From the NCBI RefSeq assembly GCF_050320075.1, contig NZ_CP190022.1: DNA of 64,000 nucleotides; one strand, given 5' to 3'. The notes beneath the pieces were generated by a model. It made no database searches and was not told where the DNA came from. It saw only the letters and a program-made list of their open reading frames with translations. Positions 7,288 to 17,045 of the stretch are shown piece by piece. The translations under genes and the position numbers were made by a program. How positions within the stretch are numbered: position 1 is the first letter of the stretch; the number at the start of each line of letters is the position of its first letter. Origin of the DNA: Escherichia coli. GTDB taxonomy: Bacteria > Pseudomonadota > Gammaproteobacteria > Enterobacterales > Enterobacteriaceae.

Positions 7288-7790
7288 CTTCGGCTCCCGG
7301 CTGCCTGGCGGCATCCGGTCGTCAGGCCCGACTACGACAGGCAGCTGCTGGCGCACCCGCCAGTCTCCGCCGAACCCGCTGGCGCGGTTTCGGGCTGTCG
7401 CTACGGTCCGATGCGTGAAAACCCGGGCTTGCAGCGACCGTTCCGGTCGCGCCGCCCCTGTCGCGCCGTGACCTGCGCTCCCTGCACACCTGACGGTGTG
7501 TGAGGAAACTGCGCCTGATGGCGCAGCAGTCTTCCCTCCTGCCGCCACCTCTGCGGCCTGTTTCCCGCTGTGGACTTTCCGGGGGGCAGACGTAACCCCC
7601 TCCCGTTCCATCTGTCCAGGGTGAGATGCACCGGCCACAAAATTTTTAGCCATGAACCCGGCTAAAAATTTTGCGTCCGCCCCCGGACAGCTGTCCCGTG
7701 AGGCGGTAAACGGGCCCCCATCGGAAAGGTCCACTGCGGGGAGAAACCCCTGTGAAGTGGACGGCAGGAGGAGCTTTCGCTCCTCTGAAG
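7288..7790 (+). repeat. Frpo/ssi-like single-strand promoter repeat, copy 1 (upstream of ssb)
   Basis: About 500 bp GC-rich non-coding block shared near-identically with 13641-14140 and (3' half) 16717-17045; contains long imperfect palindromes; ends about 60 bp before the ssb RBS. Confidence 0.7.
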
Positions 7791-13640: not shown

Positions 13641-14140
13641 CTTCGGCTCCCGGCTGCCTGGCGGCATCCGGTCGTCGGCCCGACTCCGACAGGCAGCTGC
13701 TGGCGCACCCGCCAGTCTCCGCCGAACCCGCTGGCGCGGTTTCGGGCTGCCGCTACGGTCCGATGTCTGAAAAACCAGGCCTGCAGCGACCGTTCCGGTC
13801 GCGCCGCCCCTGTCGCGCCGGAAACGGCGCTCCCTGCACACCTGACGGTGTGTAAGGCCACTGCGCCTGATGGCGCAGTTGTCTGCCCTTCCGCCGCCAC
13901 CCCTGCGGCCTGTTTCCCGCTGTGGACTTTCCGGGGGCTGAAGCGGCCACAACACGTCTCAGCCGTCCAGGGGAAGATGTACCAGCCACAAAACTTTTTG
14001 CCGCAGGCGTCAAAAACTTTTGCGTCTGCCCCCGGACAACTGCCCCGTGCCGTGGCAGTCGCTGCCCCATCGGAAAGGTCCACTGCGGGGAGAAACCCCG
14101 AAGAAGTGGACGGCAGAAGGGGCTTTCGCCCCTCCGGGGA
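13641..14140 (+). repeat. Frpo/ssi-like single-strand promoter repeat, copy 2 (upstream of the 14188 ORF)
   Basis: Near-identical to copy 1 over about 500 bp; ends about 50 bp before ATG 14188. Confidence 0.7.
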
Positions 14141-14187: not shown

Positions 14188-14622
14188 ATGACAGTCAGCA
14201 GCACGATTTCCGTTTTTTGCCGAGACGGGGTGTTCCGTACCGTTTACTGCCACCTGCACGGTGAGCCGACCTGGAACGGTCGCATCCTGCATACCCACTA
14301 TGCCACCGGTCAGCTGGCCGAAGCCCTGGTTGAACACGGAGATATCCGTTGCCTCGGTCCCCGTTGCGACAAACCCGCCGGGCATACGCTTCAGAACCCG
14401 GTGGACGGTGTGACGGCTTATTACGGACGTGACAGTGGTTTCCGGATGGACAGTGAAGCGCGTGAGTACCGCTCTTTCAGGGAGGCTATTGCCACTGAAA
14501 GCACAGAAGAGGTGCGCTTCCATTATGTGTTCATCGACGGCTACTGGAAGGTGATGTACCGCACGCCGGAAGGCTGGAAGATGAAAGCGCTCGCGCTGGC
14601 ACTGCGTCGCTGTCCGGAATGA
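14188..14622 (+). CDS. Hypothetical leading-region protein (144 aa), first gene after repeat copy 2
   Basis: GAAGGAGA RBS 7 nt upstream of ATG 14188; Cys/His-rich (CHLHGEP...CLGPRCDKPAGH); no family recognised. Confidence 0.6.
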   Translation: MTVSSTISVFCRDGVFRTVYCHLHGEPTWNGRILHTHYATGQLAEALVEHGDIRCLGPRCDKPAGHTLQNPVDGVTAYYGRDSGFRMDSEAREYRSFREAIATESTEEVRFHYVFIDGYWKVMYRTPEGWKMKALALALRRCPE

Positions 14623-14625
14623 AAA

Positions 14626-14653
14626 AAAGCAGGGCGATAAACCCTGCCTTTCT
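14626..14653 (+). terminator. Hairpin terminator between the 14188 and 14715 ORFs
   Basis: GCAGGGC-GATAAA-CCCTGC stem-loop followed by CTTTCT. Confidence 0.4.
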
Positions 14654-14714
14654 CCGCCGGCGCTTCCCCGTACGGAAGTCCGGCATCTCATTCACTAACT
14701 ATGGAGATTATGCT

Positions 14715-14981
14715 ATGAGGCCATCAATTATCTTCGCAACCGCCGAGTATGTAAAGCGTCTGCGTGAAGAGTGCCGGCGGGAGAACAAACCCCTGCACCG
14801 CCATACCCGCTTCAGACGCCAGGAACTGGCACCGGATGAGATTAACCCGGACGTCCTGGCGATGGGCGGTCATATCGCCAGACGCTGCAGTGAGCGGAAG
14901 CGGGTGCGTATCCCCGCCATGAAAGTCAGCGAATGGGGCCACCTGCTCCGCGCGCTTGAAATTGAGCGGGTCTGCCACTGA
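14715..14981 (+). CDS. Hypothetical small basic protein (88 aa)
   Basis: ATG 14715 with GGAG 8 nt upstream (track ORF 14619-14981 includes an unlikely upstream extension); Arg/Lys-rich. Confidence 0.45.
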   Translation: MRPSIIFATAEYVKRLREECRRENKPLHRHTRFRRQELAPDEINPDVLAMGGHIARRCSERKRVRIPAMKVSEWGHLLRALEIERVCH

Positions 14982-15045
14982 TTAACCCTTGCCGTCTGCC
15001 TGTGCAGGCGGCAGGATACGTTCAGACATCTCACCAGGAGGAACC

Positions 15046-15984
15046 GTGAGTAAGAAGAAAACCACCACGACGCCCACGCCGCATGATGCCGCGTTCCGGT
15101 CGTTCCTGGCGAACCCCGACGTCGCCAGAGATTTTCTGGAACTGCATCTTCCGGCGGAGTACCGGCAGTTGTGCGACCTGTCCACGCTGAAGCTGGAACC
15201 CGCCACCTTTGTTGAGCCGGACCTGCATCAGTACGCCAGCGATATCCTCTGGAGTGTGAAAACCACCGGGGGTGAAGACGGCTATATTTATACGCTCATC
15301 GAGCACCAGAGCACCGAAAATCTGTACATGCCTTTCCGCATGTTACGTTACAGTGTGGCGGCGATGCAGAGACATCTGGAGCAGCACAAAACATTGCCAC
15401 TGGTGATTCCGGTGCTGTTCTATCATGGTGAGCGCAGCCCGTACCCGTACAGCATGAACTGGCTGGACTGTTTTGAGGATCCGGCGCTTGCGGCTAAAAT
15501 ATACACAAAGCCGTTTCCGCTGGTTGATATCACTGTCGTTGATGACAATGAAATCATGAACCATCGCCGGATGGCCGCACTGACGCTGCTGATGAAGCAT
15601 ATCCGCCATCGTGACATGATGGAGCTGCTGGACAAACTCCCGCAGGTCATGGTGGAAATTTCAGACGAGCAGGTGCGTGTTCTGATTCATTACATCGTTA
15701 ACGCAGGGGACTCTGTATCACCGGAATTTATGCGGGCGCTGGCTGAGCGTCTGCCGCAGCATGAGGATAAACTGATGACTATTGCCGAACGTCTTGAGCA
15801 GCAAGGAATACAGAAAGGAATACAGCAGGGAATACAGCAGGGAATACAGCAGGGAATACAGAAAGGCCGCATGGAGGAGAAGCAGGATATTGCGCGTCAG
15901 CTTCAGAAAACGGGAATGCCATCTGCACAAATCTGTCAGATCACCGGACTTTCCGAAGCTGAACTGAAGAACATCACTCACTGA
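15046..15984 (+). CDS. Rpn-family (YhgA-like, PD-(D/E)xK) recombination-promoting nuclease with C-terminal QGIQ-repeat tail
   Basis: N-terminal TPTPHDAAFRSFLANPDVARDFLELHLP...YIYTLIEHQS is the Rpn/YhgA signature; AGGAGG RBS 6 nt upstream of GTG 15046 (track ORF starts at 14989). Confidence 0.8.
   Translation: MSKKKTTTTPTPHDAAFRSFLANPDVARDFLELHLPAEYRQLCDLSTLKLEPATFVEPDLHQYASDILWSVKTTGGEDGYIYTLIEHQSTENLYMPFRMLRYSVAAMQRHLEQHKTLPLVIPVLFYHGERSPYPYSMNWLDCFEDPALAAKIYTKPFPLVDITVVDDNEIMNHRRMAALTLLMKHIRHRDMMELLDKLPQVMVEISDEQVRVLIHYIVNAGDSVSPEFMRALAERLPQHEDKLMTIAERLEQQGIQKGIQQGIQQGIQQGIQKGRMEEKQDIARQLQKTGMPSAQICQITGLSEAELKNITH
15805..15864 (+). repeat. Five tandem 12-bp units (GGAATACAG + AAA/CAG) inside rpn encoding (QGIQ)n
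   Basis: Perfect tandem 12-mers 15805-15816, 15817-15828, 15829-15840, 15841-15852, 15853-15864. Confidence 0.9.
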
Positions 15985-15993
15985 TGAGAACCA

Positions 15994-16023
15994 CAAAGCC
16001 CGGCAAAATGCCGGGTTTTTTTG
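15994..16023 (+). terminator. Rho-independent terminator after rpn
   Basis: AAAGCCCGGCA-AAA-TGCCGGGTTTTTTTT hairpin plus T-run right after the rpn stop (15982-15984). Confidence 0.65.
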
Positions 16024-16046
16024 TCAGCAGGAGCAGAGCAAACAGC

Positions 16047-16229
16047 ATGACGATTGCAGAACGTCTTATACAGAAAGGTTTCGACGAAGGTTTTAAGAAA
16101 GGTGCGCTTGAAGTGGCGCGGGAAATAGCCTGCCGGCTTCGGGATATAGGCTGGTCGCCGGAACGGATTCAGGAGGTCACGGGACTTTCCGGTGAAGAAC
16201 TGAAAAAACTGTTTCCTGATGAGCTGTAG
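16047..16229 (+). CDS. Small stand-alone protein (60 aa) paralogous to the Rpn C-terminal tail
   Basis: Own AGGAG RBS after the rpn terminator; MTIAERLIQKGFDEGFKKG...EVTGLSGEELKKL parallels the tail of the upstream Rpn (MTIAERLEQQGIQKG...QITGLSEAELKNI). Confidence 0.55.
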   Translation: MTIAERLIQKGFDEGFKKGALEVAREIACRLRDIGWSPERIQEVTGLSGEELKKLFPDEL

Positions 16230-16259
16230 CCTGGCATTCTGCCAGGCTGTGAATCACGC

Positions 16260-16511: not shown

Positions 16512-16527
16512 AAAACACCTTTGAAAA

Positions 16528-16611
16528 AGTGAAAAAACTTCACTTTATTTTATCATCATAATCATCAAATCAGCGCGATAAATAAGTGTGAAAAAGTGAA
16601 GAAATTTCACT
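16528..16611. promoter_or_regulatory. Two operator-like palindromes (AGTGAA-N5-TTCACT) in an AT-rich promoter region
   Basis: AGTGAAAAAACTTCACT at 16528-16544 and AGTGAAGAAATTTCACT at 16595-16611, each embedded in AAAAGTGAA...TTCACTTTT; immediately upstream of the minus-strand HTH gene start (16511). Confidence 0.45.
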
Positions 16612-16716
16612 TTTTTTTGATTGTGGGTGTCGTGCTGTTTTCTCTGTTTTCACCTGTGCGGGAGTGGTGTGCCAGTGACCACCACATGCCATTGTTGTGC
16701 CGTCGTTTTTCTTCAG

Positions 16717-17045
16717 TCGCGCCGGATGCGGCGCTCCCTGCACACCTGACGGTGTGTAAGGCCACTGCGCCTGATGGCGCAGCTGTCTCTGCCTGTCTGC
16801 CGCCGCACTGCGGCCCGTTTTCCGCAGACGGACTTTCCGGGGGTACATACACGACCACATCCCGTTTCAGTCGTCCAGGGGAGAGATGTACCAGCCACAA
16901 AACTTTTTGCCGCAGGCGTCAAAAACTTTTGCGTCTGCCCCCGGACAACTGCCCCGTGACGTGGTGAGCGTCCCCCGTCGGAAAGGTCCACTGCGGGGAA
17001 ATCCCCGAAGACCCGGACGGCAGAAGGAGCTTCGCTCCTCCGGGA
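16717..17045 (+). repeat. Frpo/ssi-like single-strand promoter repeat, copy 3 (5'-truncated; upstream of the 17089 ORF)
   Basis: Matches the 3' 330 bp of copies 1 and 2; ends about 45 bp before the 17089 start. Confidence 0.7.

Follow-up and report, generated by a model that had tools for sequence, protein, structure and literature searches.

Rpn systems have only recently been recognised as antiphage defences of a toxin-antitoxin type; in them, RpnS proteins translated from internal starts block the toxic RpnL nucleases (Zhong et al. 2023, PMC10400941). Here we describe a locus of this kind in a 64,000-nucleotide window of Escherichia coli DNA (contig NZ_CP190022.1 of assembly GCF_050320075.1; the window is the whole stretch that was analysed), where an rpn gene is followed by a small open reading frame (ORF) that encodes 60 residues and resembles the C-terminal tail of an Rpn protein. 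We refer to the tail of the nuclease as the fused tail and to the product of the small ORF as the free tail. The interpretation that we favour, and to which we give about an even chance of being right, is that the region comprises an RpnLS gene-within-gene toxin-antitoxin and antiphage nuclease together with a free-standing RpnS copy, and that the free tail is a module of alternative specificity.

The described members of the family provide the framework for this interpretation. RpnA-S is a dimeric three-helix bundle, the long helix 1 of which contains four-residue repeats whose number varies widely within a species (PMC10400941). The addition of one repeat to either RpnC-S or RpnC-L led to a loss of neutralisation unless both partners carried the repeat, and RpnAS does not block RpnBL (PMC10400941). 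Free-standing downstream copies of RpnS, called RpnSs, are known on chromosomes and plasmids, among them ypaA (RpnESs) after rpnE, and rpnCSs; such copies cluster with their own upstream tail, and the YpaA protein has been detected experimentally (PMC10400941). A plasmid-encoded system, RpnP2LS, protects against T-even phages (PMC10400941). We found no literature after 2023 on RpnS, RpnL or RpnP2 beyond the paper of Zhong et al. and its commentary.

The rpn gene encodes an intact nuclease and a predicted internal RpnS

A preliminary description of this DNA, made from the letters alone, had identified the long gene of the locus as one encoding an Rpn nuclease. In a Pfam profile search, the product matched PF04754 (Transposase_31) over residues 11-207 with E=1.2e-78, and its score against the NCBIfam model TIGR01784 ('Rpn family recombination-promoting nuclease/putative transposase') was 186.6 bits, well above the cut-off of 52.1. 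The product fell below the equivalog cut-off for RpnA and PRK09956 (324 and 334 bits vs 583). Residues D14 (in PHD), D66 (SDILW), E86 and Q88 (IEHQS) and R98 (FRMLRY) correspond to D11, D63, E82, Q84 and R94 of RpnA, each of which was found to be required in the analysis of RpnA mutants (PMC5350276). The PD-(D/E)xK domain of the long gene is intact, and the identification stands.

The gene contains an in-frame ATG at codon 244 (Table 1), from which a predicted RpnS of 69 residues (15775-15984), beginning with MTIAERL, would be produced. This internal start is kept in all 27 of the related loci, which were taken down the match ranking and parsed for tails, repeat units and cassettes. The layout is the same as that of the experimentally shown internal starts of E. 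coli rpn genes, which also bear out the earlier statement that Rpn tails are reported to act as intragenic antitoxins (PMC10400941), and by this analogy the start is probably used for translation.

Part of helix 1 of the fused tail is encoded by a 12-bp repeat. The array detected by Tandem Repeats Finder extends from 15799 to 15866, with a period of 12, 5.7 copies and 91% matches. The preliminary description had counted five perfect units; the count of five at 15805-15864 is right, and the perfection is not, in that only three units are identical and the other two depart from these at two bases. The units read, in order, GGAATACAGAAA, three copies of GGAATACAGCAG, and GGAATACAGAAA, and the protein repeat is QGIQ-KGIQ-QGIQ-QGIQ-QGIQ-KG. 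The prediction that the copy number would vary by slippage agrees with the presence of 5, 6 or 7 units within the window's allele across plasmids. Another allele of the tail, the GRME type, has 0-6 units across plasmids, and the fused tails of the 27 loci as a whole have 0-7.

Two further results for the Rpn tail were of no help. NCBIfam matches to FliH were set aside, being due to the charged, glycine-rich composition of the repeat, and a PADLOC match of the tail region to 'C3a178 putative invertase' (E=1e-8) was uninformative.

The small ORF is related to the Rpn tail but does not match the tail of its neighbour

The small ORF had been proposed to reproduce the Rpn tail, and a formal alignment was in agreement with this proposal. 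BLASTP aligned the small ORF with the resident 69-residue tail at 39% identity over 67 columns (E=1e-12), and the sole gap in the alignment is one of 12 residues, which is exactly three units; the small ORF itself has two degenerate 12-bp units at 16077-16100 (GFDE GFKK). It also matches the C-terminal end of the Rpn family profile (positions 219-273 of 273, E=1.6e-6). Judged from sequence, the small ORF and the Rpn tail are true paralogues.

The resident tail is not its closest relative. The small ORF is 56% identical to the GRME-type tail allele vs 39% to the resident tail, and hence does not show the clustering with its own upstream rpn tail that would point to an origin by local duplication. 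The tails of K-12 RpnC and RpnE are 36-38% identical to the small ORF.

The AlphaFold2 model of the small ORF (predicted local distance difference test score, pLDDT, of 89.9) has a long first helix at residues 3-33 and two short ones at 38-45 and 49-55. When the model was compared with 350,542 PDB chains, the top match was 7TH0, E. coli RpnA-S, with a probability of 0.91, 40% identity and a TM-score of 0.72 on the target length; the E value was only 0.46 because the domain is tiny. After RpnA-S, the fold search returned helix-turn-helix (HTH) and TetR-type DNA-binding domains, and RpnS has been noted to have HHpred similarity to HTH motifs (Zhong et al. 2023, PMC10400941). One could, on these grounds, envision the small protein as a DNA-binding regulator, with a three-helix HTH-like fold, of the rpn operon or of the convergent HTH gene downstream, a function that would be independent of the type of the resident tail. 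However, all of the HTH and TetR structural matches have E>1, the helix-length variation of 0-6 units described below would be odd for an operator-binding protein, and there is no operator-like repeat near the rpn start. We regard a regulatory role as most improbable.

Family searches yielded little on the small ORF. The Pfam scan gave nothing at E<=0.001 and no match to PF14261 (DUF4351) at E<=10, and PADLOC gave no match. Many copies of the small ORF (cluster representatives P0001-P0120) carry the precomputed tag PF27070.1, a family outside the Pfam-A library that was scanned. A PDB sequence search returned IcmE/DotG and designed repeat proteins; these matches were driven by the repeat, with no single stretch significant, and were discarded. 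Among other proteins with this kind of module, P0137, P0143, P0151 and P0153, which come from unrelated metagenomic or genomic sources, each have three tandem RpnS-like three-helix modules, and some of them have no recognisable nuclease domain.

The fused tail is exchanged between plasmids while the free tail is kept

A comparison of the related loci showed where the variation lies. Plasmids with QGIQ and GRME tails share 98-99% identity in the nuclease domain, which is 92-93% identical to that of a group represented by loci L016 and L019. Identity between alleles falls to 68-75% in the unique part of the fused tail, and beyond that part it is back to 90-100% at the 3' end (TGLS..ELK), in the spacer and in the small ORF. 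Because the flanks are conserved and the tail is diverged, the fused tail behaves as an exchanged cassette with sharp borders. There are at least three types of fused tail among the 27 loci, plus mosaics. Only 38 plasmids have the window's type (QGIQ / RMEEKQDIARQLQKTG) at >=99% identity; the G-R-(Q/M)-E / ALEKALAIACQLQKMG type is commoner, and the third is a second QGIQ type with a diverged linker. The free ORF, for its part, is 90-98% identical between plasmids.

The number of repeat units in the free ORF, which have the form GF(D/E/K)(E/K/Q), is 0-5 in the 27 loci and 0-6 in an even-step sample of 2030 plasmids, where it was judged from match lengths of 153-225 nt. The unit numbers of the fused and free tails are uncorrelated (Spearman rho=-0.05, P=0.83) and equal in 1 of 26 loci. 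The two arrays vary independently, and the free protein cannot match every fused tail beside which it is found.

Given 39% identity, three units fewer, equal unit numbers in 1/26 loci and the precedent of RpnC, it is improbable that the free ORF serves its neighbour as a simple antitoxin; by analogy with that precedent, the three-unit difference in helix length and the 61% difference in sequence should prevent pairing. An alternative is that the small ORF is a second, back-up antitoxin that binds the RpnL tail or the nuclease domain despite the mismatch and buffers toxicity upon induction of the operon in a new host. The small ORF always adjoins rpn on the same strand (2030 vs 2035 plasmid records), it has the predicted RpnS fold and is under purifying selection (see below), RpnS proteins block RpnL elsewhere in the family (PMC10400941), and a nuclease domain that is 98-99% conserved might offer a common binding surface. 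These observations are difficult to reconcile with one free ORF standing beside three types of fused tail with 0-7 units, with its low identity to the resident tail and its shorter, uncorrelated array, and with the published inability of RpnAS to block RpnBL and the loss of blocking in RpnC upon addition of a single unit (PMC10400941). We consider a back-up antitoxin unlikely, though well worth keeping in mind.

Tails occur as cassettes that include a leader and a hairpin

The homology between tails is not confined to the coding part. DNA alignment showed that it runs into the leader and the 3' hairpin, so that each cassette consists of a leader, an ATG, a three-helix tail ORF, CTGATGAG and a hairpin. 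The cassette leader, CAGCAGGAGCAGAG...ATG, is related to CAGCATGAGGATAAACTGATG ahead of the internal start; in the window, the DNA alignment likewise reveals homology between the leader of the small ORF and the stretch that precedes the internal rpn start. Relative to the terminator after rpn, the hairpin that follows the small ORF has two changes that compensate each other (CCCGGCA/TGCCGGG to CCTGGCA/TGCCAGG). The differing C-termini of the tails (...ELKKLFPDEL vs ...ELKNITH) are accounted for by the deletion of 1 nt close to the 3' end.

Three plasmids, L007 (NZ_CP080166), L025 (NZ_CP119733) and L026 (NZ_CP032880), have three cassettes in the order Rpn with a QGIQ tail, free GRME-type ORF of 53-57 residues, and free GF-type ORF, each with a leader and a hairpin. 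L020 (NZ_OP038281.1, 397-1320) lacks a free ORF and has a 3-unit tail of the GF type joined directly to the nuclease domain, the result of a natural deletion from one cassette to another. Between plasmids, the fused cassette is swapped and the last free cassette is kept, and the nuclease domain can acquire a tail of the free type when cassettes recombine.

Table 1. Positions of the features of the rpn locus in the window
Feature	Position	Strand	Evidence or remarks
ssi/Frpo-like single-strand promoter element upstream of the rpn operon	13812..14098	+	~290 nt, ~95% identical to 16716-17006
rpnL, full-length Rpn (YhgA-like PD-(D/E)xK) nuclease	15046..15984	+	GTG 15046 to TGA 15984, 312 aa
Predicted start of the RpnS intragenic antitoxin	15763..15777	+	GAGGA 15763-15767, 7-nt spacer, in-frame ATG 15775; read from sequence
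Five 12-bp units coding for GIQ(K/Q) repeats, tail helix 1	15805..15864	+	Sequence and Tandem Repeats Finder
Intrinsic terminator between rpn and the small ORF	15995..16022	+	Core stem CCCGGCA/TGCCGGG 15999-16015, T7 16016-22
Leader of the small ORF	16029..16046	+	AGGAG (16029-16033), then 13 nt to ATG 16047
Free-standing tail paralogue of rpnSs type, 60 aa	16047..16229	+	ATG 16047 to TAG 16229; tail homology, fold, selection
Hairpin after the small ORF	16226..16250		Homologue of the terminator hairpin, no T-run; fold -17.9 kcal/mol
Gene for a convergent HTH regulator, 83 aa	16260..16511	-	Annotated as HTH transcriptional regulator in all related plasmids; pN/pS 0.20

The small ORF has a conserved leader and is under purifying selection

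According to the preliminary description, the small ORF lies behind a terminator and is a separate 60-residue ORF with a ribosome-binding site of its own; the terminator and the ORF were upheld, together with a putative ribosome-binding site. The terminator hairpin has a predicted RNA fold of -18 kcal/mol (z=-3.5), and its T-run is reduced to 4 T in some related plasmids. The proposed Shine-Dalgarno sequence is AGGAG, and its spacing is long, yet the leader, GCAGGAGCAGAG(C/A)AAACAG(C/T)ATG, is kept in 20 of 24 loci; among the other four, three have AGGGG with a shorter spacer, and L020, the fusion to the nuclease domain, has no leader. The RefSeq annotation (PGAP) gives the ORF as 81 residues from an ATG at 15984 that overlaps the rpn stop codon (TGATGA), so that the reading frame spans the terminator hairpin. 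We rejected this as the conserved start, since 10 of the 24 related loci lack the ATG or have the extension in another frame, and take the start of the 60-residue ORF to be the conserved one. Newer RefSeq records label some copies of the small ORF 'RpnC/YadD family protein'.

For a test of selection, 27 copies were used (26 free ORFs and the fused tail of L020; 20 distinct), with the repeats excluded. There were 14 synonymous vs 11 nonsynonymous segregating changes over 39 vs 117 sites, a ratio of ~0.26 (binomial P=0.0009). The pairwise ratio of nonsynonymous to synonymous divergence (pN/pS) was 0.25 for the small ORF; the corresponding values of the nuclease domain, the GRME tail and the neighbouring HTH gene were 0.16, 0.15 and 0.20, respectively. 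The synonymous divergence (pS) of the small ORF is ~0.11. No stop codon or frameshift occurs in the 27 copies, and the sole damage is an IS21 insertion that cuts the last codons in locus L018. The low pN/pS and the lack of stop codons and frameshifts indicate that the small-ORF protein is under purifying selection.

These results bear on the scenario in which tail replacement left the small ORF behind as a retired tail without function. A terminator upstream, a long Shine-Dalgarno spacing, a spacer in which no promoter was found, and a C-terminus that is frame-shifted relative to the fused tails would all be expected of such a remnant; the three-cassette plasmids show that tails do pile up, and K-12 ypaA is flagged as a pseudogene in NC_000913.3. 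An ORF without function would, however, hardly remain intact in the sampled copies at this level of synonymous divergence, with the pN/pS and P value given above, nor would its leader be expected to be conserved, and YpaA has been detected experimentally as a protein (PMC10400941). We think that a retired tail is very unlikely.

The locus resides in the leading region of conjugative plasmids

The window represents the leading region of an IncI-complex plasmid. IncI-complex plasmids are major carriers of extended-spectrum beta-lactamase and AmpC genes. The order of genes, which matches that of IncI1 plasmids, is ssb, parB-like, psiB, psiA, ardA, two small ORFs, rpn, the small ORF under study, the convergent HTH gene, the gene for a DUF4942 protein, and nikA/nikB with the origin of transfer (oriT). 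Three copies of an ssi/Frpo-like element are present in one orientation, with a core 49-mer at 7478 (7478-7526), 13830 and 16734, and they stand upstream of ssb, the rpn operon and the DUF4942 gene, as do ssi1-3 of IncI1 plasmids. The minus (transferred) strand of 13790-14120 has a predicted fold of -111 kcal/mol (z=-9.25). The IncI1 plasmid pESBL has operons that are strongly induced within 15 min of transfer, and these are driven by its three ssi elements, which act as single-stranded DNA promoters (PMC12672017). The locus has the position, the transferred-strand orientation and the upstream ssi-like element of a leading-region operon; that the element would have promoter activity is suggested by the pESBL study (PMC12672017), and the middle ssi-like element is so placed that the operon under its control should be the one in which rpn and the small ORF come last.

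The 2-kb region is found in 2035 of 72,556 PLSDB plasmids, which are mainly conjugative and mainly from Escherichia, Salmonella and Shigella, and the small ORF is found in 2030 plasmid records. On plasmids, the small ORF was never found away from the rpn locus. Among 5426 complete E. coli genomes, 1340 have the small ORF, in 2173 places, of which 2144 are on plasmids and 29 are chromosomal. A tblastn search of 50,697 phage records with the small ORF as query gave no match at E<=1e-3.

The leading-region setting raises the possibility that the small ORF is an anti-defence 'orphan antitoxin', expressed early from the transferred strand and directed against an Rpn of the recipient, whether chromosomal or encoded by a competing plasmid. 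The small ORF lies ~2.5 kb from oriT in the transferred-strand orientation and in an operon behind an ssi-like element; orphan antitoxins are enriched in leading regions and have been proposed to act against toxin-antitoxin systems of the host or of competitors (PMC11541004); and the wide polymorphism in unit number would fit an arms race. Against this idea, the small ORF never departs from its own rpn on plasmids and has only 29 chromosomal places among the 2173 in E. coli, the tails of K-12 RpnC and RpnE are no closer to it than 36-38%, no phage homologue was found, and a terminator separates it from the operon. The lack of any occurrence off the rpn locus and of a phage homologue argues against a mobile stand-alone anti-defence gene. 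We find the orphan-antitoxin reading doubtful, and the suggestion in the preliminary description that a free-standing tail gene might be an anti-Rpn protective factor is, in its simplest form, not favoured.

Two other parts of the neighbourhood deserve mention. A 39-nt repeat is present in two copies, 16513-16551 and 16580-16618, each with the palindrome AAAGTGAA-N4/5-TTCACTTT; lying immediately upstream of the HTH gene start (16511), the repeats look like putative operator sites for the HTH regulator. A weak PADLOC match of the HTH gene to 'mad1' was uninformative. The gene just upstream of rpn (window 14619-15045) is polymorphic, being either a 267-bp ORF or a 390-bp ORF that overlaps the rpn start. 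Loci with a variant segment here are L003, L005, L008, L014, L015, L020, L024 and L027; L024 and L027 have both ORFs, and the identity of the segment to the window is as low as 78% in L005 and L020.

Discussion

The interpretation that we prefer, a gene-within-gene RpnLS followed by an RpnSs of alternative specificity, can be put as a series of steps. The resident nuclease would be held in check by its own internal RpnS, initiated at ATG 15775, which always matches the fused tail in type and length because the same DNA encodes both. The free 60-residue protein would be made, fold like RpnS and dimerise through helix 1 with partners of its own type and length; it would not be the cognate antitoxin of the neighbouring nuclease. 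Instead, the free tail may provide immunity against, and serve as a recombination donor for, Rpn variants with a tail of the GF(D/K)(E/K/Q) type. Such GF-tailed Rpn variants do occur in this plasmid family, at a frequency of ~1/60 in an even-step sample of 60 of ~2,000 plasmids. Since the operon lies behind a leading-region element of the ssi/Frpo type, its early expression in a new host is probable.

Several considerations weigh against this interpretation. The requirement for equal unit numbers was measured with RpnC alone, and for a difference of a single unit (PMC10400941). Purifying selection tells us that the small protein matters and not what its role is. The rarity of GF-tailed Rpn (1/60) means that selection through such partners would be weak. 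The free protein may bind the conserved nuclease domain rather than a tail. Finally, the small ORF stands behind a good terminator with a 13-nt spacing between Shine-Dalgarno sequence and start, and no sigma-70-like promoter was seen between rpn and the small ORF.

A more far-reaching proposal is that the region is a cassette-switching locus with a downstream store of tails, in which the free tail confers trans-immunity against the Rpn of rival plasmids that have the same tail type and unit number, and is made in the first minutes after transfer from the operon with the single-stranded DNA promoter. We put this forward as a speculation with a rather small chance of being correct. If it is true, then the free tail is a plasmid-versus-plasmid anti-Rpn factor and not the antitoxin of its neighbour.

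Whichever reading applies, the small ORF is present, on IncI-complex plasmids, in about a quarter of complete E. coli genomes, and it is one of the genes that a recipient receives first. The plasmids provide a natural allelic series, with three types of fused tail having 0-7 units, a constant free tail having 0-6 units, three-cassette plasmids and fusions, which could be used to examine how helix length sets the specificity between RpnL and RpnS and whether a mismatched free tail is active. The conceptual gain over the 2023 work would be modest unless the free tail proves to act in trans on other Rpn nucleases.

Comparison with known systems

The closest counterparts of the locus are the K-12 pairs rpnE-ypaA and rpnC-rpnCSs. 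As in these pairs, a small ORF on the same strand directly follows rpn and starts at MTIAERL, the position equivalent to the internal RpnS start, and, as in the K-12 RpnSs, it has four-residue units of its own, the number of which is unlike that of the fused tail. The tail of K-12 RpnE and YpaA (L028, NC_000913.3 2356904-2358001) are 79% identical and exactly one four-residue unit apart. This identity, together with the clustering of the two, points to a local duplication, and by the published specificity rule even YpaA, the textbook RpnSs, would be off-register with respect to its neighbour RpnE. Unlike YpaA, the free ORF of the plasmid is 39% identical to the resident tail and 56% identical to another allele, and it remains constant while the fused tail is swapped. 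The plasmid locus differs from rpnE-ypaA also in that an intrinsic terminator lies between the genes, that it is part of a plasmid leading region behind an ssi-like element, and that it can have up to three cassettes.

RpnP2LS of E. coli ECOR13 resembles the locus in being a plasmid-borne Rpn with an internal RpnS; its RpnL is toxic without RpnS, and the protection against T-even phages mentioned above is its property (Zhong et al. 2023, PMC10400941). The main text of that paper makes no mention of conjugation, a leading region or an IncI context (PMC10400941).

The locus shares with the orphan antitoxins of leading regions (Samuel et al. 2024, PMC11541004) the transferred-strand orientation, the proximity to ardA, psiB and ssb, and elements like single-stranded DNA promoters. 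The small ORF differs from them in that it always adjoins its own toxin gene, and because that gene is always adjacent, the small ORF is not an orphan; the near-equal counts of small ORF and rpn locus on plasmids (2030 vs 2035) give no instance of occurrence without the cognate toxin gene. Rpn, YhgA and PF04754 go unmentioned in that leading-region survey (PMC11541004).

Free-standing RpnS-like small proteins are also found among those annotated as DUF4351 (PF14261), which are small three-helix proteins with many free-standing relatives of 55-110 residues. These relatives and the small ORF fit the consensus MTIAExL..G...G...G..E....IA..L...G...E.I...TGLS..EL. The difference is that the ORF of the window has no PF14261 match and that its database representatives are tagged PF27070.1 instead.

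A more distant parallel is the TAEL repeat of EcoR124I and EcoR124II, a precedent cited by Zhong et al., in which a four-residue helix repeat varies by slippage of a 12-bp unit and its number sets specificity. The TAEL repeat, however, resides in the specificity subunit of a restriction enzyme of type I, and what it sets is the spacing of the DNA target and not the pairing of a toxin with an antitoxin.

Every element of the locus belongs to a kind described in 2023 (Zhong et al.). What is distinctive here is the occurrence of swapped fused tails beside a constant, mismatched free tail, the stacks of cassettes, and the setting in a leading region with ssi elements.

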